Assembly: GCA_013816135.1 (NCBI GenBank)
Contig: JACDEV010000001.1
Location: 28,994-92,993 of the forward strand
DNA: 64,000 bases
Direction of reading: 5' to 3'
From: Patescibacteria group bacterium
GTDB taxonomy: Bacteria; Patescibacteriota; Minisyncoccia; Phycocordibacterales; DATDWN01
A program made the position numbers and the translations under genes. Below, in pieces: positions 7,470 to 53,012 of this stretch. How positions within the stretch are numbered: position 1 is the first letter of the stretch; the number at the start of each line of letters is the position of its first letter. The notes beneath the pieces are model-generated. The model worked only from the letters and a program-made list of their open reading frames with translations, was not told the DNA's origin and made no database searches.

Positions 7470-7982
7470 CTAATGCTTCTCCGTTAAGATTTTTCCGGCC
7501 TCATTTATAAAAGTAGAATCTCTTGTCACCATATAAGTTGCTTCATATACATTCATAGGGCTTTCTGATAATTTCTTTTTAGCTTCTTCAAAAGGTAGCC
7601 AAACTTGTACAAACCCTTCGCTAATTTCATTATCTGTTAATTCTGGAGTCTTTTTTTCACCAACAACTTTTGCTAAATAACAATAAGATATTTGCTTCAG
7701 ATTTTGTTGTGATCTGTATTCAACAATCAAACCAATTTCTTTCCCCACATCAACATTTGATCCTATCTCTTCCAAGCATTCTCTTTTTAAGGCATCTATC
7801 TGATCTTCTCCAGAGTCTATGCCTCCACCAGGTAGTTTATAGTAATCATTTTTTGTTGCATGAAGTATTCCAACTAAATTGTCTTTATCAAAAACAATAG
7901 CTCTAACCGCTTCACGTTTTCTATATCCATTTGCCACTTCCTCAGTAACGTTTTCGTGATTAATGAGCTTAAGGTGTTGCAT
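7470..7982 (-). CDS. NUDIX hydrolase
   Basis: Nudix box GGGIDSGEDQIDALKRECLEEIG. Confidence 0.75.
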   Translation of the reverse strand: MQHLKLINHENVTEEVANGYRKREAVRAIVFDKDNLVGILHATKNDYYKLPGGGIDSGEDQIDALKRECLEEIGSNVDVGKEIGLIVEYRSQQNLKQISYCYLAKVVGEKKTPELTDNEISEGFVQVWLPFEEAKKKLSESPMNVYEATYMVTRDSTFINEAGKILTEKH

Positions 7983-8085
7983 AATGATATTATATAAATT
8001 TATTACTTAGAATAAAGGGAATCTTTCCTTACAGGAACGGTACACCTTTTCTGTTTTACTTAGTAAAACTATCAAAGGTCTTCGA

Positions 8086-8146
8086 TTCCCTACGCAGAGT
8101 CTCCCAGACTCTGCTGTCTCCCAATAAAGCTTAAGCTTTATTTTTG
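8086..8146. repeat. Inverted partial copies of the tRNA-Gln 3' end plus nested palindromes
   Basis: The plus strand TTCGATTCCCT...GTCTCCCAG copies the tRNA T-loop/acceptor. CTGTCTCCCA (8114-8123) is the inverse of TGGGAGACAG (8148-8157). A perfect palindrome ATAAAGCTTAAGCTTTAT lies between them. Confidence 0.6.
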
Positions 8147-8217
8147 CTGGGAGACAGGGAATCGAACCCCGATTAAAGGCTTCAAAGGCCTCTGTCCTAC
8201 CGTTAGACGATCTCCCA
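8147..8217 (-). tRNA. tRNA-Gln (anticodon UUG)
   Basis: Cloverleaf on the minus strand: acceptor TGGGAGA/TCTCCCA, D-loop AACGGTA, anticodon loop CTTTGAA, T-loop TTCGATT. Confidence 0.85.
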
Positions 8218-8262
8218 ATATCTATTTAAAACAGCTTTCATATTAGCACTTTCTTCATTTTT

Positions 8263-9812: not shown

Positions 9813-10688
9813 ATGAGTGGAAACTTGAATATCGGATCAGTGAACGGACACATAGTTGGAAGGGTCTTGAAAGAGACAGTTCGACGAGCAGCGGTGGTCA
9901 TCCGAAACGAAACGATGATCTTCGACGCGAGAACAAAGGAAAGCTACAGTGGGACGATGGACGATGTGTTCACGTCGGCAGATACGAAGGCACAAGCTCT
10001 CTACCTGCGTACCTTCGATGAATGCTTCCCTCTCTGTGGAGTCATCGGCGAGGAAAACAATCTTACGATCAAACCCGAAGAAGGGTGCACCGCGTATTTC
10101 ACGGTAGACCCTTTGGATGGAACCAAAGCCTATGTCCGTCGGCAATCCCATGGAGTTGCAACAATGGTTGCACTCGTGGACAAAGGTGAAGTTCTGTCCG
10201 CCTATATCGGAGATATCAACACCGACGAAGTGTATGGTTTCCGACCTGGTTCGAATAAAGTTTTCCGGATCACGAGATTGGATTCATTCGAAGAATTACT
10301 TCCCGGCAAAACGCTTGGAAGTCTCAAGGAAGCCCACTGCCTACTTCGGGATCCTGTCGAGATATACAGTACTTCCACTCAGACCCTCGTCAAGAAGTTC
10401 AAAAACTACGAGGTTATGGGGTCATCTATCGGTACCTGGATGGCACGACTTTGGAAACAAGAGATTCCTGCTGTGCTCATTGAAGCAGGATGGGAAACCC
10501 CATGGGATTCAACACCCATAATCGGAATTTCCCAGAAACTTGGATATGTGTTCCTCCGTCCTGGAGGATTAGGTCTTCCTGGAGAGCGTGTGTGGAAAAT
10601 ATTTCAACCCAAGCTTGTCCAAAAAAAAGAACGACGGAATCACGATACGTTAGTTATCCACGCAAACAATCTACATCTTCTCTACTGA
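9813..10688 (+). CDS. Inositol monophosphatase/CysQ family phosphatase
   Basis: Motifs VIGEEN, VDPLDGTKAY (DPxDGT) and ETPWDSTP (WD..); 291 aa; GC-richer than flanks. Confidence 0.6.
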   Translation: MSGNLNIGSVNGHIVGRVLKETVRRAAVVIRNETMIFDARTKESYSGTMDDVFTSADTKAQALYLRTFDECFPLCGVIGEENNLTIKPEEGCTAYFTVDPLDGTKAYVRRQSHGVATMVALVDKGEVLSAYIGDINTDEVYGFRPGSNKVFRITRLDSFEELLPGKTLGSLKEAHCLLRDPVEIYSTSTQTLVKKFKNYEVMGSSIGTWMARLWKQEIPAVLIEAGWETPWDSTPIIGISQKLGYVFLRPGGLGLPGERVWKIFQPKLVQKKERRNHDTLVIHANNLHLLY

Positions 10689-25795: not shown

Positions 25796-26009
25796 TGACC
25801 AATTTAATTTATTTTCTTGGTATAGAACTCAAGAAAACCAATATCGAGTCAATTTCTAAGGCCTCTTTTAGTTATGCTTTCGCTTAATACGTTTGATTGC
25901 CTGAAGTTTACTTGTTTCTTTTGAATTAGAACGAGATACTGATTTTCTTGAACTCTTAAGGATTGGAGAAAATACCTTGTCTATATACTATCATAAGTGA
26001 AGAAATATG

Positions 26010-26555
26010 TCAAGCTTTTAATTTGATCTCATTAATTTTATTCCATATTCCTATGTCTCCTATTTTTTTATAAAGATCCACAGAATAAACAATAAATGTA
26101 AACGTTTCAGCAACATTAGTGAGTTCATCCTTAATTTCAGTAAATAGTTTATCAGCTATACCAGCAGAAATAGTCATGTGAGGATTGAAATCTGATATAT
26201 TGTCATCATATTTAAGTAAAACACGACCTTTAAGAACAACAGAAGATGCTGAATTAATTTCTTTCAAGTAAATAATGGACTTAGAATTTGGTTTGAAATA
26301 AACTACATTACTATCATTTCTGTTTTCAAAATAACCAATCGAGTCTAGCGTAACTTCTTCCGATTTTAAACTAAATAATTCCTCAGATAGTTTTTTTATT
26401 ATGATGTCTAAATCCTCAGTATGAAATGGAGGGTAGATAGTTATATGTGGCTCGATTGAAGAAATAAGCTTTTTATATATTTTTCTATATTCATCTACTT
26501 TTCTAGACACTTCATTGGGTGGTGTGATAGCTAAGAGGTACGAAATTTTATCCAT
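26010..26555 (-). CDS. 2H phosphoesterase superfamily protein (LigT/2'-5' RNA ligase-like)
   Basis: Two H-x-T-x motifs (EPHITIYPPF and NPHMTISAG) at the spacing typical of LigT. Confidence 0.65.
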   Translation of the reverse strand: MDKISYLLAITPPNEVSRKVDEYRKIYKKLISSIEPHITIYPPFHTEDLDIIIKKLSEELFSLKSEEVTLDSIGYFENRNDSNVVYFKPNSKSIIYLKEINSASSVVLKGRVLLKYDDNISDFNPHMTISAGIADKLFTEIKDELTNVAETFTFIVYSVDLYKKIGDIGIWNKINEIKLKA

Positions 26556-26563
26556 AAATAAAT

Positions 26564-26700
26564 CATATCATGAAGCCGGAGGTGAGAATCTTTCCCTCGA
26601 CTCAAACTCTCGCCGTCGCTCATGTTTGGTCTGGGCACCAACTCGCGTTTTCGTTTTGCTAAACGAAAAATCGCTCCGTTGTTCAAGTCTCTCGCGCGAA
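26564..26700 (+). other. Degenerate tRNA-Leu(CAA)-like pseudo-tRNA with two insertions, convergent with the real tRNA-Leu(CAA)
   Basis: Plus strand GCCGGAG...CGACTCAAA[~37-nt insert]CGCGT[~22-nt hairpin insert TTTTCGTTT-AGCA-AAACGAAAA]CGCTCCGTTGTTCAAGTCTCTC mirrors the acceptor, anticodon arm and T-arm of the adjacent tRNA. The 3' acceptor is not matched. Confidence 0.5.
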
Positions 26701-26723
26701 ACATGTTTCGCTCTCTAGCACAA

Positions 26724-26745
26724 ACCAAAAACCGCTTTCGCGGTT
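26724..26745 (-). terminator. Terminator after tRNA-Leu(CAA) (AAACCGC-GAAA-GCGGTTT + T5 on the minus strand)
   Basis: 7-bp stem and T5 immediately 3' of the tRNA. Confidence 0.6.
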
Positions 26746-26752
26746 TGTTTTG

Positions 26753-26834
26753 TGCCGGAGGAGAGACTTGAACTCTCAACCCTTGCGAGACGCGATTTTG
26801 AGTCGCGCGCGTATACCAATTCCGCCACTCCGGC
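26753..26834 (-). tRNA. tRNA-Leu (anticodon CAA)
   Basis: Acceptor GCCGGAG/CTCCGGC, anticodon loop CTCAAAA, long variable arm, T-loop TTCAAGT. Confidence 0.9.
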
Positions 26835-26898
26835 ATAAACAAAAGAATACCTTATATAAACAAAAAATCAAACATAAATTTTATAATCTTATCCGTAT

Positions 26899-26935
26899 AA
26901 TAGAGAAAGGTCGGCACGGATGCCGACCTTTTTTT
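26899..26935. terminator. Terminator hairpin (AAAGGTCGGC-ACGGAT-GCCGACCTTT + T7)
   Basis: 10-bp perfect stem with T7 on the plus strand, between tRNA-Leu and the 3' end of 26938..27459. Confidence 0.6.
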
Positions 26936-26937
26936 AT

Positions 26938-27459
26938 TTACTTTGAATTCTTCTTTCTTGCACGTTTTCTTTTTTTCCACGCCTTATTGCGTACTGTGGC
27001 GGGGAGAAGTTTCGTTTCTCTAAACAACAACTTCCTGACAGTAAGAGCCTCGTGGATATGGGTATTGCTAACTTTAATACCCATAAGCATTACTGGATCT
27101 CCCACTCGACTTAGACGGCTTTGATAAAGAACGTACTTTTCATCCTCCTCGATGATTTCGATTTCATACCCCAATGCAACAATCAAGGGAAAATGCGCTA
27201 CACACAATCGCTTCGCCAAGTCCACATATCTGCTTGGAGACATCGTACGAACGAAACTCTCCGCAGCAATCCACACGGTGGCGCTTTGAGACTTCTGACC
27301 TCGACTGTAAGCTTTCCAAATACCGTTAAGTACTTGAATGAGAATCTTACGTCTAATCAGTTCTTCGGGTTGAAGCCGTAGTACTTCCCACTTTTTTATC
27401 TTTTTGAGAATCCCTTGTCTATCTTTCTTGGTCTTGATATCGAGCACAACACGTGACAT
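26938..27459 (-). CDS. Hypothetical protein with a Lys/Arg-rich C-terminal tail; tRNA-adjacent and GC-richer than flanks
   Basis: 173-aa ORF ending KAWKKRKRARKKNSK; no family recognised. Confidence 0.35.
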   Translation of the reverse strand: MSRVVLDIKTKKDRQGILKKIKKWEVLRLQPEELIRRKILIQVLNGIWKAYSRGQKSQSATVWIAAESFVRTMSPSRYVDLAKRLCVAHFPLIVALGYEIEIIEEDEKYVLYQSRLSRVGDPVMLMGIKVSNTHIHEALTVRKLLFRETKLLPATVRNKAWKKRKRARKKNSK

Positions 27460-27519
27460 CTTTGCCTCCTCATAGCAATTGCTCTATAACTGAATCCGTC
27501 GTATAGTCTGACAGACTTT

Positions 27520-28428
27520 ATGAAAAATACAAGACTCCAAATTAAACCTAAGATATTGGTGATTTTAGGTCCAACTGCTTCTGGGAAAAGCGCACTCGCT
27601 GTAAATATTGCTAAAAAATATAATGGCGAGATTATTTCTGCTGATTCTAGACAAGTGTATATTGGTCTGGATATTGGAACAGGTAAAATAACAAAGAAAG
27701 AAATGATGGCTATTCCCCACTACATGCTCGACGTTGTCTCTCCAAAAAAAGTTTTTTCAGTTTCTGATTGGAAAAAACAAACAGAAAGAATCATTAAAGA
27801 TATCCTTGCTAGAGGGAAACTACCTATTATATGTGGTGGAACTGGTTTTTATATTCAGTCTATTGTAGAGGGTATTATTCTTCCAGAAGTTTCAGCAAAC
27901 AAGAAACTAAGAAAAACACTAGAGAGAGAAAGTTTATCTGAACTTTTAAATACACTGATCAGACTGGATCCAAAAAAAGCAAAAGAAATAGATACAAAAA
28001 ATCCTGTAAGACTTATTCGTGCAATCGAGATTGCTACAGCTCTTGGCTCGGTTCCAAAGATTAAAAAAAATGAAGCCTATGATGTATTACAAATTGGTTT
28101 GAAGATTGAAGACAATGATCTCAAAAGAAGAATAAATAAAAGAATAACTTCTAGACTAAAATCCGGAATGATACAAGAAGTAAAATCTCTTCATAAACAA
28201 GGACTTTCTTGGAAGAGAATGAATGAACTAGGTCTTGAATACAAACTGCTCGCTACATACATTCAGGAAAAAACTACAAAAAAAGAATTGATAAAAAACT
28301 TAAACAATGAAATTTGGCACTATGCCAAAAGACAAATGACCTGGTTCAAGAGAGATAAGAATATAAAGTGGTACTCACCAATAAGCAAAAAAATAAATTC
28401 GGAAATTAAGGATTTTTTAAGTGTCTAA
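27520..28428 (+). CDS. miaA: tRNA dimethylallyltransferase
   Basis: P-loop ILGPTASGKSALAVNIAKK...IISADSRQVY.GLDIGT.K. Confidence 0.85.
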   Translation: MKNTRLQIKPKILVILGPTASGKSALAVNIAKKYNGEIISADSRQVYIGLDIGTGKITKKEMMAIPHYMLDVVSPKKVFSVSDWKKQTERIIKDILARGKLPIICGGTGFYIQSIVEGIILPEVSANKKLRKTLERESLSELLNTLIRLDPKKAKEIDTKNPVRLIRAIEIATALGSVPKIKKNEAYDVLQIGLKIEDNDLKRRINKRITSRLKSGMIQEVKSLHKQGLSWKRMNELGLEYKLLATYIQEKTTKKELIKNLNNEIWHYAKRQMTWFKRDKNIKWYSPISKKINSEIKDFLSV

Positions 28429-28475
28429 AAATTACAATTCAAATTAAATAAATATTGTGTTATTATGTTGCCCAC

Positions 28476-28546
28476 GGGGGATTAGTTAAGTGGTATAACA
28501 GCGCTCTCCAAAAGCACTGTCGGGAGTTCGATTCTTCCATCCCCCG
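28476..28546 (+). tRNA. tRNA-Trp (anticodon CCA)
   Basis: Acceptor GGGGGAT/ATCCCCC, D-loop AGTGGTA, anticodon loop CTCCAAA, T-loop TTCGATT. One C·A mismatch in the anticodon stem. Confidence 0.75.
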
Positions 28547-28604
28547 CAAAAATTACGGAGTAATTTTTTTCTGGGGGATGAGCAGAGCATGGGTATGCTC
28601 TGCG

Positions 28605-28745
28605 TGAAGAATCGAAGCCCGATTGAGATATTTTGTGAGCAATGCGATACAAAATATCCAATTGGGATACTGCTCCTGTAAGGAGAGATTCTTCTATGGA
28701 GACGGCGAGTTTTGAGTCGCGGAAGATTCTTCCATTTTTTGTTAT
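28605..28745. repeat. Patchwork of tRNA-derived fragments: partial tRNA-Tyr 3'-half copy, tRNA-Leu anticodon-arm-like segment and an 11-nt repeat of the tRNA-Trp 3' region
   Basis: 28629-28639 TCGAAGCCCGA equals the tRNA-Tyr variable/T region at 31184-31194. 28706-28717 TTTTGAGTCGCG equals the antisense tRNA-Leu(CAA) anticodon arm. 28727-28737 GATTCTTCCAT equals 28531-28541. A 9-bp hairpin GCAGAGCAT-GGGT-ATGCTCTGC also sits here. Confidence 0.5.
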
Positions 28746-28756
28746 AATTATGTTAT

Positions 28757-29389
28757 ATGAAAATTACTAAACTTGGACACTGTTGTTTATTAGTAGAAAC
28801 TAAAGGAAAAAGAATCCTTACTGATCCAGGTAGTTATACTGTTGAAGCTCATTCTAAATTAGAAAATATTGATTTCATTCTTTTTACGCACGAGCATCAA
28901 GATCATTATCACGTTGATTCTCTAAAATTGATCATTCAAAATAATCCCCATGCAGTTGTTTTTTCTAACAGTTCAGTTAGTGAACTTCTAACTCAAGAAG
29001 GGATTCCACACACTAAAATAAGTCATGATGAAAGTTTTGATCTAGGAGGTATTCCAGTACTAGGTTTGGGAGAAAAGCACGCACAAATGCATAGTTCTAT
29101 TCCAGTTTCTTCAAACCTAGGTTTTTATATAGATAAGAAACTTTGGTATCCGGGGGATGCATTTACAGATCCAGAGAGATCTGTAGAAGTATTAGCTCTT
29201 CCTGTATCTGGACCATGGATGAAAATTGGAGAAGCAATTGATTATGCACTTTTGATTCAACCAAAGAAAGCATTCCCTGTTCATGATGGTACACGATTTG
29301 GTTCTGCGCATGTTCTTCCCGGCAAAGTTCTTCCTCAACATGGAATAGAATTCGTTGTCATGGTTGAAGGTGATACTAAAGAATTTTAA
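28757..29389 (+). CDS. MBL-fold metallo-hydrolase
   Basis: THEHQDHYH has the HxHxDH motif; 210 aa. Confidence 0.65.
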   Translation: MKITKLGHCCLLVETKGKRILTDPGSYTVEAHSKLENIDFILFTHEHQDHYHVDSLKLIIQNNPHAVVFSNSSVSELLTQEGIPHTKISHDESFDLGGIPVLGLGEKHAQMHSSIPVSSNLGFYIDKKLWYPGDAFTDPERSVEVLALPVSGPWMKIGEAIDYALLIQPKKAFPVHDGTRFGSAHVLPGKVLPQHGIEFVVMVEGDTKEF

Positions 29390-29674
29390 TAACAAAAAAG
29401 CGCTCTAGAGCGCTTTTTTGTTATTTCTTAGACTCTTTGAAACTAACTCGTTTTCTGAGTTTCTTGCTGTATTTCATAAGGTCGATTTTTCGCTCAACTT
29501 TCTTCTTATTCTTTGAAGTCCAGCGTACCTCCCCTGTTTCCTTATTTCTTAGTATGATCAATCGGTCTTGTGACATATGCGTTATTTAAGTAGATAGAGC
29601 ATACCTAAATACGGGTAAAATTGCAAATCGAATGAAAAACGAAAGGCACCCGATGTTCTGGGTGCCTTATAATT

Positions 29675-30316
29675 TTAGAGACTATCTTCAGGTCCAATGA
29701 TAGGAAGGCGATGACTCATCCGAAGCCATCGGGCAAACGTGATCCATGAACCATCGATTGAAACGTAGCTTTCCCTTTTAATTGAGAATCGGGCCAGGCT
29801 GTACCCACTTTCATCCTTAATCCCCAGTCCTTCGAATACTCCCCGAGCAATCTCGATTGCTGTATCACAGAATTGTTCTCTATGAGCAAGAACAAAGAAC
29901 AATTTGAAGGTTGTGTCCGTCCATCTTTTTGTAGCTGGGAATTCGATGTGGACTCCAAACTCATTTGGCTTTTTTGAATTTCCAGAAGGATTGTTTAATC
30001 TTGCTTCAAGAAATTTCACAATTGCTTCTGAATTTGGAGGAATGTTCGGCCCACGTTGCCGTCGAATATCGAGAACTATTTCACCCTTGCGCTGGTCATG
30101 CTCTCCGTCTCTTGGTTGAGAGATAGCTTCCATTCTAAACAAGCCATGAACTTTTTCTTGAGCCTGGTAATCAATGACTTTTGAGTCAACCAAACCAAGA
30201 TCCAAATTCCCATCCATAGACAAGCTAGTTGGAAGACCCATGCCGTAGCAATCCCAAGTTAAAGTAACTTTGTCCCAAATCTTCATCTGACTCTCCTTGT
30301 CGCTCATTATACCCAC
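29675..30316 (-). CDS. Hypothetical protein, GC-richer than flanks, probable mobile-element cargo
   Basis: 213-aa ORF divergent from the recombinase remnant; no family recognised. Confidence 0.35.
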   Translation of the reverse strand: MGIMSDKESQMKIWDKVTLTWDCYGMGLPTSLSMDGNLDLGLVDSKVIDYQAQEKVHGLFRMEAISQPRDGEHDQRKGEIVLDIRRQRGPNIPPNSEAIVKFLEARLNNPSGNSKKPNEFGVHIEFPATKRWTDTTFKLFFVLAHREQFCDTAIEIARGVFEGLGIKDESGYSLARFSIKRESYVSIDGSWITFARWLRMSHRLPIIGPEDSL

Positions 30317-30346
30317 ATGGGCGTCCAGTATTAGACTGGATCATTT

Positions 30347-31150
30347 AGGAGCGATCTAAGGTCAATATTATTTAAAATAGGTAAAAAAGGAAGACCTAGA
30401 GCTCAAAAACACATATTTCCTTTTACTGGAATAATGACTTGTGGTGAGTGTGGAGCAAGAGTTACAGCTTCAGAAAAAAAGAAGTTGAATAAAACCAGTG
30501 GGAAAATAGAAACTTACGTTTACTATCATTGTACAAAAAGAAAGAAGTATATAGATTGCAAAGCACAACCAGTTACTGTATCTAAGCTTGAAGATGACAT
30601 TGTAAAAACAATAGAAACAAATCTGATTGATCCAGAGTTTTATAAACTAGGTTTAGAGACTTGGAAAGAAGTGCACGAACTGGAAACAGACCAAAGACAG
30701 AAAATATACGAGGCACAATTCAAAAATGTAGAAGAAACAGAAAAGAAATTGGATCGAGCACTTACATTTCTTTTTGATGGAACAGTTACAAAAGAACAAT
30801 ACAACATCCAAAAACAAGAATTAGAAAAATTACTAACAAGAGAAAAAGACAAACTCGCACAAACAGAAAAAAGAGCTACGAACTGGAGAGAACTTACTGA
30901 AAATGTTTTACACTTCTCTGCTTTAGCTGTAGAAGCGCTTAAACATGGAGATGTTCAGGTCCGGAGAGAGACACTGAGTAGTCTAGGTTGGAACCACAGG
31001 ATAGAATCTAAAAAACTGTTTATAAACCTACATTCTTGGTTTACTGTTCTTAAAAAAGGTGAGGAAGAGCTTTTACCAGAAATAAAAGCGTTGGAACTGG
31101 AAAAAATCGTTGATAAGCAAAGACGGATGGAAGCTTTTGCCACCATCCGT
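30347..31150 (+). pseudogene. Large serine recombinase, 5'-truncated remnant (recombinase + Zn-ribbon + coiled-coil part only; resolvase catalytic domain missing)
   Basis: The frame is open from the stop at 30344: ...KKGRPRAQKHIFPFTGIMTCGECGARVTA...YYHCTKRKK...C... is the typical Zn-ribbon_recom motif, followed by a long coiled coil. The annotated ORF (30434..31306) runs on antisense through tRNA-Tyr, which looks spurious. Confidence 0.6.
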
Positions 31151-31159
31151 CCTAGGTTG

Positions 31160-31242
31160 TGCGTCGGGAAGGATTCGAACCTTCGAAGCCCGAAGGCGCC
31201 AGATTTACAGTCTAGTGCGATTGACCACTCCGCCACCGACGC
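31160..31242 (-). tRNA. tRNA-Tyr (anticodon GUA)
   Basis: Acceptor GCGTCGG/CCGACGC, anticodon loop CTGTAAA, long variable arm CGCCTTCGGGCTTC, T-loop TTCGAAT. Confidence 0.85.
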
Positions 31243-31402
31243 ATTCTCGATACTCATTATTCCCTCATCTGCTTTGTTGCTGATTGTGCCCGCTTCCGCA
31301 GAGTAGTTTTCTACACTTTGGTCGCGGTACTCATCAGCGCCTCGCATCTGTGGGAATTCTGTGCTCGAGAAATACTTTAACACATTTTATTTAATTGAGA
31401 AA

Positions 31403-34075
31403 CTATACTAAAGTTTTTTCGTGAACAAAGCTGTCTGAGACGAAGGAGCCATTCCTCCCTTTTTTAACAGTAAAATCAAATTCTCCATTTTTTATATCAA
31501 CAGTTATTGAACCCCCTTTAGACAAACCTTTACTTACCATAAGCGAAGCAATAGAAGTTAGTATTTTAGTTTGGATTAAACGCTTTAGAGGCCTCGCTCC
31601 GTACTGAGGGCTATAACCTTCCTTACTTAAATGTTCAAAGACTGCATCAGACAAAATTAATTTGATTTCTTTTTGAGCCAAGCGATCTTTCACGATACCT
31701 ACCTGTATCTTTACAATTTCCTTGATTGCTTCCCTGCTCAAAATATCGAAGACAATTATGTCATCTAAACGATTTAGAAATTCTGGCCTAAAATGATCTC
31801 GTAAAGCATCGAGAACTTTGGACTTAGCATCCTCATATCCGGCTTTTTCATTCCCAGAAGCAAAACCTATTTTTTCCATTTTATCTATATAGCGAGCACC
31901 GATGTTTGAAGTAAGGATGATGACAGTATTTCTGAAATTTACCAACCTGCCTTTTGCATCAGTTAATCTTCCATTATCCAGAACCTGAAGAAGAATGTTG
32001 AAAACTTCTGGGTGTGCTTTTTCAATTTCATCAAACAATATAACTGAATATGGTCGATGTCTGACCATCTCAGTAATAGTTCCACCTTCTTCGTGTCCAA
32101 CATAACCTGGAGGAGCACCAATTATCTTTGATACGCTGTGCTTTTCCATAAATTCAGACATATCTATCCTAATGAGAGATTTATCATCATCAAATAAGAA
32201 TTCTGCCAAAGCTTTGGTCAGTTCTGTTTTACCGACACCTGTTGGTCCAAGAAATAGAAATGAACCGATCGGACGGTTAGGGTCAGCAATACCAGCTCGT
32301 GAACGTTTGATAGTATCTGAAATCTTTTTCACAGCATCTACCTGGCCTACTATTCTTTTTCGGAGAACTTCTTCCATTCTGTTTAACTTTTCTGCTTCTT
32401 CTTCTAGCATTCTGGAAACAGGAACCCCTGTCCATTTGGATACGACTGTAGCGATATCGTTTTCAGTTATTTCTTCATTTAATATCCTTCGTGAACTCTG
32501 AAGTTTTTTTAATCTTTTTGCTTTGTTATCTAAATCTTTTTCGTAAGCAGGAATTTTGCCATATCGAATCTCTGCTGCTTTTGCTAATTCAGCCTTCGCT
32601 TCTGCTGTCTCTGCTTCCCGTCTCAACTCTTCTAACCTCTTTTTAATACCCTTAATATCGTTTACTGTTTCTTTTTCATTATTCCACTTAATCTCAATTT
32701 CTGAGGTTTGTTCTTTAAGATCTGCAATATTCTTGTCAATTTCCTTCAATCTGGTTTTAGATTTAGGATCTGTTTCCTTTTTAAATGCTTCATGCTCTAT
32801 TTGGAGCTTTACAATCTTTGAATGAGCACTCTGAAGAACTGGAGGTTTATTTTCTAGAGCAATCTTCAAAAACGAAGCTGACTCATCTATCAGGTCTACT
32901 GCCTTATCAGGTAAAAATCTATCAGTGATATAACGACTAGAAAGATTGACTGCAGAAATAATTGCCTCATCAGTTATTCTGACACCATGATATAACTCAT
33001 ATTTTTCTTTCAAACCACGTAAAATAGTAACTGCATCATCTACGCTTGGCTCATTTACATAAACTGGCTGAAATCTTCTTGAAAGTGCTGGATCTTTTTC
33101 GATATGCTTTTGATACTCTTTCAAAGTAGTAGCACCAATTGCCCTAAGTTCACCTCTAGCTAAAGCTGGTTTAAGCATATTGGAAGCATCAAGTGATCCT
33201 TCTGCTGAGCCTGCTCCGACAATAGTATGTATCTCATCGACGAACAAAATAACTTTGCCGTCTGATCTTTCAATTTCCTTTAAGATATTTTTTAGTCTCT
33301 CTTCGAATTCTCCTCGGTACTTTGTTCCCGCAACCAAAAGTCCTAGATCAAGGGATACTAGTTCTTTATCTTTTAATGATTCAGGCACATCTCCCATCGA
33401 CATTCGAATAGCTAAACCTTCAACGATTGCGGTTTTTCCCACGCCAGCTTCCCCAATAAGCATCGGATTATTTTTTGTCCGCCTTGAAAGAATCTGAATT
33501 ATTCTAGAAATTTCATCATCGCGACCAATAACGGGGTCAAGTTTATTTTGCTGAGCGAGCTTTGTGAGGCTTCTAGTAAATTTTCCTAAAGCTTTGAATT
33601 TCTTCGGTGCATCAGGCTCAACTGTTTTTGTACTTCTAATATCCTCGATGACTCGCAGTACTGCATCTTTATCTATTTTAAATTTTGAAAGTAGGTCTTT
33701 GGCAGGACTTGGGATTTCCATAAGAGCCATGAACAAATGTTCAGTAGATACGAACTCATCATTTAAATGTGAAAGTTCTTTACCTGAAGCTTCAATTGTC
33801 TGAGCTAATTCAGGAGTGAGATAGATTTGATAAGATGCAGATAAAGTTTGTCCAGCTTCAGTGCCTTCAATAGCTTCCAAAAGTGAATCTGTCAGTAATA
33901 TAGTATCAACTTCCAATCTGTCTAAAATTGATGTGACGATGCTTTCTTCCTGCAAAATAAGAGCTGTGAGTAAATGAAGTGGGTTTACATGATTCTGTCC
34001 GCGTTCAATAGCGAGCTCATGAGCTCGGCGGATGGCTTCTTTTGCTTTTGTTGTAAAGTGACTGAATGGAGGCAT
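31403..34075 (-). CDS. clpB: ATP-dependent chaperone ClpB
   Basis: Clp N domain, two AAA+ modules ([15 protein letters not shown]; [17 protein letters not shown]) and a long middle coiled-coil; 890 aa. Confidence 0.9.
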
Positions 34076-39115: not shown

Positions 39116-39199
39116 GGGCAAGTGGCGGAATTGGTATACGCGCTAGTCTTAGGAACTAGTTCCTCACGGATTGGGAGTTCGAGTCTCCCCTTGCCCACA
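39116..39199 (+). tRNA. tRNA-Leu (anticodon UAG)
   Basis: Acceptor GGGCAAG/CTTGCCC, anticodon loop CTTAGGA, long variable arm, T-loop TTCGAGT. Confidence 0.9.
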
Positions 39200-39236
39200 A
39201 TTAAAAAACACCTTTACCGGTGTTTTTTAATTGTGG
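39190..39236. repeat. 23-bp perfect inverted repeat that includes the last 10 nt of tRNA-Leu(UAG) and a terminator core
   Basis: CTTGCCCACAATTAAAAAACACC-TTTACC-GGTGTTTTTTAATTGTGGGCAAG. Confidence 0.7.
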
Positions 39237-39254
39237 GCAAGAGCAAAGCGATGC

Positions 39255-39345
39255 TTTGCGCGGGAGACTCGAACAACGGAGCGACTCTTGTTTTAGCAAA
39301 AACAAGACGCGAGTTGGTGTCCAGACCATAATTTTCTGACGAGAA
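39255..39345 (-). other. Second degenerate tRNA-Leu(CAA)-like element (homolog of 26564..26700), convergent with tRNA-Leu(UAG)
   Basis: Plus strand GCGCGGGAGACTCGAACAACGGAGCGA[CTCTTGTTTT-AGCA-AAAACAAGA]CGCGAGTTGGTGTCCAGACCA[CATAATTTTC-TGACGAG-GAAAATTATG]AGTCGCGG. It is ~80% identical to the reverse complement of 26590-26700, with compensatory changes in the inner hairpin. Confidence 0.5.
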
Positions 39346-39360
39346 AATTATGAGTCGCGG

Positions 39361-39467
39361 ACGAGTCTCATTCAATATCCAAACACGGGTACTGATCCTG
39401 TAAGGATCGAGTCTCCCTCTGAGTTCATGAAAAGTGAGAGTTGTGACCGAGTCTCCCTTTTCCCACC
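39361..39467 (+). repeat. Direct partial copies of the tRNA-Leu(UAG) T-arm/3' end (att-site-like scars)
   Basis: Copies of TCGAGTCTCCC(C)TT.CCCAC at 39405-39425 and 39447-39467, and a truncated copy at 39361-39373. The real tRNA 3' end is at 39180-39199. Confidence 0.55.
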
Positions 39468-39515
39468 TGTTGACACTCTATTTTTACAGTTGTATTATCG
39501 AGCACAGAGGTACAG

Positions 39516-50530: not shown

Positions 50531-53012
50531 CAAACATATCAAACTTGCTATCGAGTCGCCCTCCCGCAACTTCATAACCCTCACTCCCTGAGTCTGACGG
50601 CCTAGAACCGGAATCTCCTTTGCGTCTACACGTATAACCTGAGATTTCTTTGAGATGGCTACAACTTCTGCCTCGTCACTAGAGAATATCTTCGCTGAGA
50701 TGATATTTCCGGTCTTTGGAGTGACCTTTGCTGTTTTTATTCCTGACCCACCTCTATTTTGGATTTTGTATTCATCAATATCGGTTTTCTTTCCATATCC
50801 ATTATTTGAAATAACCATTATGGTAGCTGAGTTAACTGAGTTTGAAACGGTTTCAGCTGATATAACTTCATCGCCCTTGCCAAGCTTCATTCCACGAACA
50901 CCCATTGCTGTCCTACCCATCTCTCTTATATCTGATTCTTTGAAATGTATAGCCTGACCTTTTGCTGTAACGATAATCACAGTATCTTTCTTGTGAACAA
51001 ACGAAGCAGAGATTAGGGAATCACCACCATCTAGTTTGATCGCAATAATTCCAGAGATGCGCACATCATGAAAGCTGGCAGTAGAAACTTTCTTGGCTAC
51101 TCCTTGTTTGGTCACCATCATAAGTGAGCTTTCTGACTTCTTAACTTCCTTTGGCATTGGAAGAATAGAGGTGATTTTTTCACCTTCGAATAATGGGAGA
51201 AAATTCTGGACTGATTTACCTCGAGTTGCTCGCCTACCTTCTGGAATATCATACATTTTGGTCTGATATACCTTTCCTTTGTCAGTAAAGAACAAAAGGT
51301 CGGAATGAGTGGAAGTTATGAGAAGCATAGTTACAAAATCCTCTTCTTTGGTATCAAGGTCCACAACACCGACTCCCCCTCGTTTTTGTTTTCTAAATTC
51401 ATCTGGATTTGTACGCTTAATATATCCGCCTGCTGTCAAAACAAGTGCGTTCTCTTCATCTGCGATTAAATCTTCAACAGATAATATTTGAGCTCCGCCT
51501 TTGATTATTCGAGTTCTCCTTTCATCTCCGTACTTTTCTTTAATCTCTTTGCTCTCATCTTTAATTATTCCAAGAATCTTTTTTGGACTAGATAAAATAG
51601 CTTTCATTTCATCTATGAAAAGCTGGACTGCCTTCAATTCATCCTCGATTTTCTTTCTTTCAAGACCTGCAAGTCGTGAAAGCTTCATTTCCAAAATAGC
51701 TGTGGCCTGGATAGCAGAGAACTTGAACTCTGACATCAATTTTTTGTGTGCTTCCGGTGTATCTTTGGAACCACGGATGAGTTTGATTATCTGATCAATA
51801 TGATCGAGAGCTTTTTTCAATCCAAGAAGGATATGTTCTCTTTCTTGTGCCTTTCTTAAATCATATTCTGTTCGTTTTCTGATCACTGTCATTCGGTGAG
51901 TAACAAACTCTTCCAAAATTCCTTTTAGAGATAGAGTTTCTGGTACACCATTTACCAATGCAACCATGTTGTAATGGAAAGCTTCTTCAAGCTGAGTGTG
52001 CTTATATATATAATTCAAAACTGACTGTGGGTGAGAAGTTCCTTTGAGGTCAATTGCTATTCGAATATCCTTTGCAGACTCATCTCGCATAGCTTTTACT
52101 CCTTCAAGTTTTTTGTCTCGAACTAGTTCAGCTATCTTTGTAATAAGGTTTGCCTTGTTTACTCTATATGGAATGGAAGTAATAATAATCTGAAAATTCC
52201 CTGCTTTGTTTTCAACAATCTCCGCAACACCTCGAGTAACCACTCCGCCTTTTCCATTTGCATAGGCGTGAGCAATATCTTTTTGATTGAAAGCCACTCC
52301 TCCAATCGGAAAAATCTGGACCTTTAACGAACTGAAGTAGGTCTTCTGTTGTTGCGTCTTTATTGTCCACAAGATGAATTACGGCATCCATGACTTCTCC
52401 TAAGTTATGAGGAGGAATATTTGTTGCCATACCAACTGCAATACCCAAAGTTCCATTCAAAAGAAGGTTGGGGACTCGAGTTGGCAAAACTGCAGGCTCT
52501 TTCTTTGTGCCATCATAGTTCGGAAGAAAATTAACTGTCTCTTTTTCAATATCACGGAGAAGTTCTCCAGCAATCCTAGACATCTTGGCTTCGGTATATC
52601 GATAAGCCGCCGCATTATCACCGTCGATAGAACCAAAGTTTCCTTGTCCGATGATAAGTGGATACCGCATCGTGAAATCCTGAGCCATTTTGACCATAGA
52701 GTCGTAGACGGCAACGTCACCATGAGGATGGTAATCTCCAATAACCGCTCCAACTACTGTCGCTGATTTTCTAGTCTTGCCTGAAACAGTCAAGCCATTT
52801 TCATTCATCGCATGAAGAATCCTTCTATGTACTGGTTTCAATCCATCACGGACGTCAGGAAGGGCACGGTCAGTAATAACAGACATAGCGTAGTCGATAA
52901 AAGAGGTCTTCATTTCATCGATAATTTCCTGAGAAATAACGTTCACTCTTGGCAATATCGGCTCGTCTTTAGGAGTATCTGTAGATTTTTTAGGCATAAA
53001 AATATAGGTCAA
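50528..53012 (-). CDS. gyrA: DNA gyrase subunit A, interrupted by a single-base frameshift (two ORFs 52212..53012 and 50528..52372)
   Basis: The N-terminal ORF has the active-site [11 protein letters not shown] and ends ...KGPDF. The downstream frame continues ...[27 protein letters not shown]... The frames differ by +1 at the A5 run 52311-52315 (T5 on the coding strand). Confidence 0.8.

Follow-up and report, generated by a model that had tools for sequence, protein, structure and literature searches.

A 64,000-nt stretch of contig JACDEV010000001.1 from a Patescibacteria group bacterium (the window, to whose positions all coordinates refer) was analyzed around its tRNA-Tyr gene, beside which lies a short piece of a large serine recombinase (LSR) gene. 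Based on the comparison with related loci, labeled L001 to L176, it was concluded that this stub is very probably the surviving 3' half of the LSR gene of a small integrative element, which inserted at tRNA-Tyr and was later deleted. A second sequence at 28.6 kb, downstream of tRNA-Trp, is separate from the LSR stub and is a copy of a widespread, uncatalogued, tRNA-linked structured module.

The Recombinase Stub at tRNA-Tyr

On the + strand, a reading frame was open from 30335 to the stop codon at 31304–31306, and its first ATG at 30434 defined an open reading frame (ORF) of 290 residues. The in-frame stop upstream was the TAG at 30332–30334, not a stop at 30344 as given in an earlier note on this DNA. 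The same note had described a frame that reads antisense through tRNA-Tyr, and the frame was indeed found to cross the whole tRNA gene to its stop 62 nt beyond it. The only Pfam domain in the frame was PF13408 (Zn_ribbon_recom, E 4.2e-11, residues 25–89) with the ligands CGEC...YYHC...C. The Resolvase catalytic domain carrying the serine nucleophile (PF00239) was absent from the ORF and from all frames of the window. The Recombinase domain (PF07508) gave no Pfam match in the window, and its last ~10 residues (GKKGRPRAQKH) were left. Therefore, of the recombinase/Zn-ribbon/coiled-coil content proposed earlier, the zinc ribbon was retained and the Recombinase domain was not, apart from these residues. 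The stretch after the zinc ribbon, where the coiled-coil and the C-terminal region are expected, could be aligned throughout with intact relatives.

When full-length relatives were used as tblastn queries, the homology began at GKKGRP (30377), at about residue 270 of ~545. The first 270 residues left no trace in any frame, either in 28000–31400 or in the whole window (best E 2.7), and tblastn found no resolvase domain displaced into another frame. With the zinc ribbon as the only Pfam domain, no Resolvase domain and no N-terminal 270 residues, the proposal of a 5'-truncated LSR was borne out.

Compared with the C-terminal half of each full-length LSR, the stub reached 58–76% identity for L001 and L010–L014 and ~50% for L015. 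The protein database held an identical 290-residue protein and one that was 75% identical (P0002); the public records carry the 290-residue ORF without a name. In the 1.7-kb contig of P0002 (L001), an upstream frame encoded a complete recombinase domain preceded by the end of a resolvase domain, split from P0002 by a run of N in the scaffold, and the LSR frame likewise entered antisense tRNA-Tyr beside clpB. Judged by sequence, 30377–31158 is the 3' half of an LSR gene and thus a fragment of the family rather than a functional member. The annotation of the 290-residue ORF is corrected to a predicted pseudogene fragment, the tail of which is antisense tRNA.

The Insert Boundaries and the Empty Site

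An empty site was provided by L005 (GCA_023267045.1), where no recombinase was found. The gene order there was clpB, a 211-residue ORF, tRNA-Tyr, 81 nt, gene X, rpmG, a TrpR-like gene, tRNA-Trp and miaA. By blastn, the window positions 29484–30371 were homologous to L005 (72%) and the match resumed at tRNA-Tyr and clpB, leaving a gap in which window 30372–31157 faced L005 7835–7915. Since the homology to L005 extended up to 30371 and started again from tRNA-Tyr, the inserted DNA amounted to only 786 bp (30372–31157), and gene X and rpmG belonged to the backbone. In the more distant genome L009, the blastn match likewise ended at 30371, and miaA, tRNA-Trp, a variable gene, rpmG, tRNA-Tyr and clpB were kept together. 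The same site measured 81 nt in L005, 786 nt in the window and more than 4 kb in L010 and L013. Two further public assemblies, L003 and L004, matched the window at 100% identity across the junction at 30372–30376. According to these alignments, the site is both occupied and empty among related genomes, as expected of a tRNA-integrated mobile element.

Intact Relatives and the Element Core

A scan of species-representative genomes yielded eight LSR loci, seven of which encoded full-length proteins of ~545–560 residues with the catalytic N-terminus ...YARKSTES...Q..SI.DQ.... The L013 LSR contained the Pfam domains Resolvase (E 2e-19), Recombinase and Zn_ribbon, and matched the SPbeta integrase (9dxh) and the A118 integrase (4kis) by sequence. 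The arrangement of LSR and tRNA was recorded at eight loci: the LSR abutted tRNA-Tyr in L001, L002, L010, L011, L013 and L015, and tRNA-Phe in L012, the LSR of which was 64% identical to the window fragment. Beyond the tRNA, clpB was found in L001, L010, L011 and L013, and the order LSR, tRNA-Tyr, clpB in L010, L011 and L013 was that of the window. Hence, the earlier suggestion of an integrative element that entered at tRNA-Tyr and was later largely deleted agreed with the intact relatives at the same junction and with the empty site in L005.

Upstream of the LSR, L013, L014 and L015 encoded a Toprim/DnaG-like primase of ~720–750 residues, and L012 shared a block homologous to the primase region. 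In L010, a prim-pol/AAA_25 protein and a DnaB-like helicase were encoded at this place. A conserved core of ~4.2–4.5 kb was delimited by the homology between loci in differing host contexts. It started with a ~50-residue ORF just upstream of the primase, followed by the primase, an optional ORF of ~150 residues and the LSR of ~545 residues; for example, L013 6672–10806 corresponded to L014 2001–6634. Gene X, rpmG and the metallo-β-lactamase (MBL) fold gene of the window were not found upstream of the LSR in the intact relatives, and no element genes were found elsewhere in the window.

The LSR genes of this family had no stop codon of their own before the junction; each frame entered the antisense tRNA and stopped at a different place. 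The conserved protein end was ...RP.LC, with the Cys codon antisense to the terminal GCA of the tRNA. Because the frame is open into the target, the tail of the protein is set by the integration target.

Two further observations were made at related loci. In L014, the LSR was followed by non-tRNA sequence directly after GTGC. L017 carried a second, independent LSR remnant (10001–10213), consisting of the last 65 codons (195 nt) only, then 8 nt of a tRNA 3' end (GTGCGCCG) and unrelated sequence without a tRNA.

LSR targets are usually protein-coding genes, and to our knowledge the mobile elements of Patescibacteria are poorly described. Literature searches turned up no account of tRNA-associated LSR elements from Patescibacteria. 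The loci described here represent a compact LSR-plus-primase element that is recurrent at tRNA 3' ends in this group.

The Hairpin behind tRNA-Tyr

A hairpin on the minus strand (minimum free energy −24.1 kcal/mol, z −3.6) was located within the last conserved LSR codons (EAFATIRP). In the alignment of 10 loci, 93.8% of the cells were paired, compensatory changes occurred in 5 of 13 pairs, and the covariation score was reached by none of 500 shuffles; controls in which the pairing was slid were 34–67% paired. Fifteen G-U cells favored the tRNA-sense strand (93.8% versus 82.3% paired), on which the hairpin was more stable in 10 of 10 loci. In L005, a different, canonical terminator occupied this position. 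We infer that the element-supplied hairpin replaced the native terminator of tRNA-Tyr and ends or insulates its transcript, and this role may be the reason why the last part of the LSR gene survives. The LSR genes of these elements borrow their stop codon from the target and bring along a covarying hairpin that lands behind the tRNA.

The Origin and State of the Remnant

Very probably, a small integrative element inserted at the 3' end of tRNA-Tyr. The LSR would have joined the 3' terminus of the tRNA to an element site that overlaps the 3' end of the LSR gene, by which the conserved hairpin of the element would have been put directly behind the tRNA in place of the native terminator. In the window lineage, as the comparison with the empty-site relative shows, a later deletion removed all DNA between about LSR codon 270 and the leader of the host gene X, including the primase and the far junction; the loss would amount to ~3.5 kb for an ancestor similar to the intact relatives. 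A catalytically dead stub of 786 bp is left. Its persistence may reflect a recent deletion, a service of the last ~40 nt as a hairpin behind an essential tRNA, or both.

Several observations weigh against this explanation. In L010–L015, no repeat of tRNA-Tyr or tRNA-Phe longer than 12 nt was found within 10 kb, just 9–12-mers at chance level. No far junction could be recovered from the intact elements of this subfamily, which leaves attP and attB undefined, and the element size is given by homology blocks only. The tail past the hairpin was weakly U-rich, and a terminator role is unproven. Further, the stub showed no decay, with no stops or frameshifts in 262 codons. Its ratio of nonsynonymous to synonymous divergence (dN/dS) against intact copies was 0.10–0.27, inside the range of 0.04–0.28 among the intact copies, and the branch dN was 0.086 for the window and 0.069 for L001. 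A retained function of the stub is therefore possible. Additionally, the divergences of LSR and host were roughly congruent, so the element may have been passed on vertically for a long time instead of having moved recently. As the synonymous divergence to the relatives was saturated (dS > 1), dN/dS gives no date for the truncation; the absence of stops in 262 codons implies that the truncation is recent or that the stub is still constrained.

The latter case was considered in a stricter form, namely that the 290-residue ORF (30434–31306) is not a dead remnant and is retained and expressed as a truncated zinc-ribbon/coiled-coil protein, which might, for instance, bind att DNA or disturb the action of related recombinases that enter the cell. 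In LSRs, the coiled-coil mediates subunit contacts and the zinc ribbon binds DNA. The DNA-binding zinc ribbon and a putative coiled-coil are both present, the frame is intact over 320 codons despite the AT-rich genome, and dN/dS was ~0.1–0.13 relative to the nearest intact copies, while the window branch showed no excess. However, with saturated dS a recent truncation would look alike. No sigma-70-like promoter was found upstream on the + strand, ATG 30434 was not preceded by a Shine-Dalgarno sequence, and the C-terminal 48 residues were encoded by antisense tRNA and its flank. The truncation was seen in the window lineage only, and the different, shorter remnant in L017 (195 nt) demonstrates that piecemeal decay occurs. 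We regard an expressed protein as improbable.

The earlier note had interpreted tRNA-Tyr and a partial copy of it at about 28612–28642 as attL/attR-like ends of a ~2.6-kb element, with the MBL gene and the GC-rich gene X as implied cargo. The claimed copy was reduced to a single exact match of 11 nt (28612–28622 and 31183–31193) in direct orientation. In L118, described below, an LSR-bearing element is indeed flanked by such repeats of a tRNA 3' end in direct orientation. The 11-mer, however, was at chance level: it ranked seventh among 304 window chunks, its blastn-short E value of 1.9 was equaled by another 11-mer at 52239, and under permissive gapped scoring ~0.84 equally good matches were expected per 2.6 kb. 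It overlaps 28606–28616 (GAAGAATCGAA), an exact inverted copy of the T-loop/T-stem of tRNA-Trp, which explains its tRNA-like look, and the sequence at 28.6 kb is part of a tRNA-Trp-specific module. The empty site in L005 limits the insert to 786 bp, with gene X and rpmG next to tRNA-Tyr; the MBL gene is ubiquitous in Patescibacteria-type genomes in unrelated contexts, and intact LSR relatives carry none of X, rpmG and MBL. An element spanning the whole 2.6 kb is thus very improbable, and the cargo status was withdrawn.

It is scarcely credible that the junction at 30372–30376 is an assembly chimera of an organism with an intact element: metagenome assemblies often break at mobile elements, as in L011, where the contig begins 252 nt before the LSR frame, but the NCBI metagenome contig and the Logan assembly of SRR11719869 were 100% identical across the junction, and the flanks were colinear with L005.

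The tRNA Trailer Module

The 209-nt spacer behind tRNA-Trp was predicted to fold with a minimum free energy of −69.6 kcal/mol (z −5.7). Modules of this type were found behind four of the eight tRNAs of the window, namely tRNA-Gln, tRNA-Leu(CAA), tRNA-Trp and tRNA-Leu(TAG); the tRNA-Trp spacer resembled those of tRNA-Gln and tRNA-Leu(TAG) and one in L019. In all four spacers, the acceptor 3' strand of the tRNA recurred inverted at about +23 to +35 (exact over at least 8 nt in three of four) and its T-loop/T-stem recurred inverted at +55 to +64; further on, the tRNA 3' part was repeated in direct orientation. When 35 tRNA flanks were compared, inverted matches of at least 10 nt were present in six downstream flanks and in none of the upstream ones. 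In the predicted structure, P1 arises from pairing between the inverted and the direct copy; within it lie the variable hairpin P2, a junction of sequence GUACNG, and the hairpin P3, whose CUGUAAG loop is conserved.

A covariance model (R1) was built from four copies. The tRNA-Trp copy, which was one of these training sequences, scored 90.6 bits, and the model also detected one copy in L017 and, in L010 and L011, copies behind tRNA-Lys and tRNA-Leu. Rfam 15 gave no module match at the gathering threshold in the whole window, where it matched tRNAs only, and no relevant match at E ≤ 1–5 in 26000–34000 or 7900–8250. A 20-base core pattern was present in at least 120 metagenome contigs (L020–L139); an exact scan of viral contigs with this pattern found none.

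On those metagenome contigs, the model identified 101 copies, and the resulting alignment, fitted to the covariance model and not made de novo, comprised 95 distinct sequences. In this alignment 93.5% of the cells paired (49–67% in slid controls), compensatory changes were observed in 21 of 23 pairs, and double-change cells numbered 425 versus 117 ± 9 in shuffles. A tRNA on the same strand lay upstream in 73 of the 86 assessable copies, ending a median of 66 nt away and covering 29 anticodons. In 28 of those copies, the tRNA 3' end was repeated in direct orientation over 17–20 nt.

Two known RNA classes were considered as candidates and rejected by reasoning, each also having no Rfam match. 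The order of the junction strands does not fit a hammerhead-like ribozyme, and no features of a T-box are present. No description of the trailer module was found in the literature. The stub is by itself of little importance and biologically ordinary; the module is the more interesting object and deserves follow-up.

The Possible Link of the Module to Serine Recombinases

For some modules without an adjacent tRNA, the cognate tRNA was located further upstream with a perfect 18-nt repeat, at a distance of 839 nt (L063), 935 nt (L049) or 7.5 kb (L118). The 7.5-kb segment of L118 (1745–9400) was bounded by perfect 18-nt repeats of the tRNA-Glu 3' end and carried the module at its far end. The interval encoded two NUDIX proteins, a 725-residue protein, a PrgI-family protein and an LSR of 431 residues, which contained Resolvase, Recombinase and Zn_ribbon domains, was 38% identical to the L013 LSR and started ~310 nt from the module. 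The idea that LSRs never leave long direct repeats was dropped on account of this locus.

Relatives of the L118 LSR (43–69% identical) were found on 50 IMG/VR contigs. In L142, L152 and L176, a minus-strand tRNA was located 120–150 nt past the 3' end of the LSR gene, a convergent arrangement as in the window. The module covariance model matched one of the 50 viral LSR contigs.

On the strength of a single clear locus, we read the module as the far end of tRNA-integrated LSR elements, and solo modules as remnants or miniature derivatives of such elements. A bolder version was also formulated, in which the modules would be functional ends of a large, undescribed LSR-mobilized family in Patescibacteria and viruses, including recombinase-less miniatures, with the target-complementary arm specifying or presenting the attachment site as folded DNA or RNA. 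We consider this rather unlikely. If it were true, the window would contain one dead LSR element at tRNA-Tyr and four solo modules at tRNA-Gln, tRNA-Leu(CAA), tRNA-Trp and tRNA-Leu(TAG). A module that is this common and covaries this strongly offers a concrete and testable link between tRNA genes and serine-recombinase elements.

The Locus between tRNA-Trp and tRNA-Tyr

The features of the locus, the other modules of the window and the element cores of the intact relatives are collected in Table 1. The tRNA-Trp and tRNA-Tyr genes named in the earlier note were confirmed by ARAGORN and Rfam. Of the genes between them, the MBL hydrolase and gene X had been recognized before, and rpmG, which encodes ribosomal protein L33, had been overlooked.

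Table 1. Coordinates of the features at the tRNA-Trp/tRNA-Tyr locus and of related features (window positions unless a locus is named).
Feature	Position	Strand	Basis and remarks
tRNA-Trp(CCA)	28476–28547	+	ARAGORN, Rfam; source or partner of the trailer module
tRNA-Trp trailer module	28548–28756	+	Folding, repeat analysis, covariance model
Terminator-like hairpin	28548–28570	+	First part of the tRNA-Trp trailer module
Inverted acceptor copy GGGGGATG	28573–28580	+	Repeat analysis; followed by hairpin P0
Inverted T-arm copy GAAGAATCGAA	28606–28616	+	Repeat analysis
Three-way junction (predicted)	28606–28694	+	Covariance-model match
Direct copies of the tRNA-Trp 3' part	28687–28694, 28725–28735	+	Repeat analysis
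MBL-fold hydrolase	28757–29389	+	Pfam Lactamase_B_3, E 1e-23; host gene in the variable slot between tRNA-Trp and rpmG
rpmG (ribosomal protein L33)	29421–29576	-	PF00471, E 3e-8; host core gene
Gene X (203–213 residues)	29675–30316, leader 30317–30371	-	Host gene; homologues in relatives
Deletion junction	30372–30376		Host homology ends at 30371, LSR homology starts at 30377
LSR remnant (3' half), predicted pseudogene	30377–31158	+	Pfam, tblastn with full-length relatives
13-bp hairpin, 8 nt past the tRNA-Tyr 3' end	31122–31151	-	Folding, covariation in 10 loci
tRNA-Tyr(GTA)	31159–31242	-	ARAGORN; Rfam 60.3 bits; 3' end is the proposed integration point
Module of tRNA-Gln	7983–8145	-	
Further module	~26560–26751	-	
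Module of tRNA-Leu(TAG)	39199–39470	+	
Element core, L012	3440–7820		Inter-locus homology
Element core, L013	6670–10790		Inter-locus homology
Element core, L014	2000–6615		Inter-locus homology
Element core, L015	6260–10815		Inter-locus homology

Gene X had 23 homologues with 45–100% identity and no Pfam match; its AlphaFold2 model was confident (pLDDT 82) and gave no significant match in the PDB. The gene adjoined tRNA-Tyr in L005 and L007, lay close to it in the window, and was found in the same neighborhood in L009. Its upstream leader of ~55 nt was conserved at the DNA level even in L009, where the protein identity was only 49%. Gene X and rpmG shared the miaA/tRNA-Trp/rpmG/tRNA-Tyr/clpB neighborhood in L005 and L009. 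The content of the slot between tRNA-Trp and rpmG varied: an MBL gene in the window, a TrpR-like gene in L005 and a gene of 148 residues in L009.

The MBL protein had more than 3800 homologues at E ≤ 1e-20. Among the best 120 of these, the identity was 73–100%, against 65–75% for clpB between the same kinds of genomes; nearly all were exactly 210 residues long, and those carrying names were of Patescibacteria type. In two relatives checked, L018 and L019, the gene lay in unrelated contexts without a recombinase. The MBL hydrolase was thus unusually conserved, yet its genomic neighborhood was different in every genome examined. Gene X, which adjoins tRNA-Tyr at the empty site, rpmG and the MBL hydrolase are, by these comparisons, host genes and not cargo of the element.

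Three side observations concern the structure of the locus. A perfect palindrome of 19+19 nt (AATAACAAAAAAGCGCTCT / AGAGCGCTTTTTTGTTATT) was found at 29388–29425, where the MBL and rpmG genes converge, and probably serves as a terminator in both directions. The orientation of tRNA-Trp relative to miaA was the same in the window and L009 and opposite in L005, which is a local inversion between close relatives (window 28476–28547, L005 9481–9553). The 211-residue ORF between clpB and tRNA-Tyr in L005 (7130–7765) had no Pfam match; by flank similarity it was also present in L002 (589–798), L010 and L011, and was absent from the window and L001.

Comparison with Known Systems

The full-length relatives of the stub share the order Resolvase, Recombinase and Zn-ribbon/coiled-coil with phage and transposon LSRs such as SPbeta SprA/YokA, the A118 integrase and TndX/TnpX. 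They were, however, only ~25% identical to the phage and plasmid LSRs in the collections searched, and the genes of this family differ from those of known LSRs by ending against a tRNA 3' end without a stop codon of their own. The window copy differs further, as it keeps the zinc ribbon without the catalytic half.

Genomic islands and prophages that are targeted to tRNAs by tyrosine integrases leave decayed integrase pseudogenes. The locus resembles these islands in the recombinase at the element edge by the tRNA 3' end, in the empty site and in the decay to a stub. Unlike them, it involves a serine recombinase, a tRNA-Tyr direct repeat was not detected, and the cargo of the relatives is a primase instead of phage or island genes. 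Ten of 15 tyrosine-integrase attB sites overlap tRNA genes (PMC8092301).

For the trailer module, the nearest leads are remnants flanked by att sites, of the type of cis-mobilizable elements (CIME), and folded attachment sites such as integron attC and CTX-phi attP. By analogy, the module would likewise be a short, recombinase-less unit bounded by a duplicated target, with an inverted copy able to fold onto the direct one. It is unlike these systems in that it was found together with an LSR at a single locus, and in its conserved three-way junction, its strong covariation, its target-specific arms for 29 tRNAs and its very high copy number.

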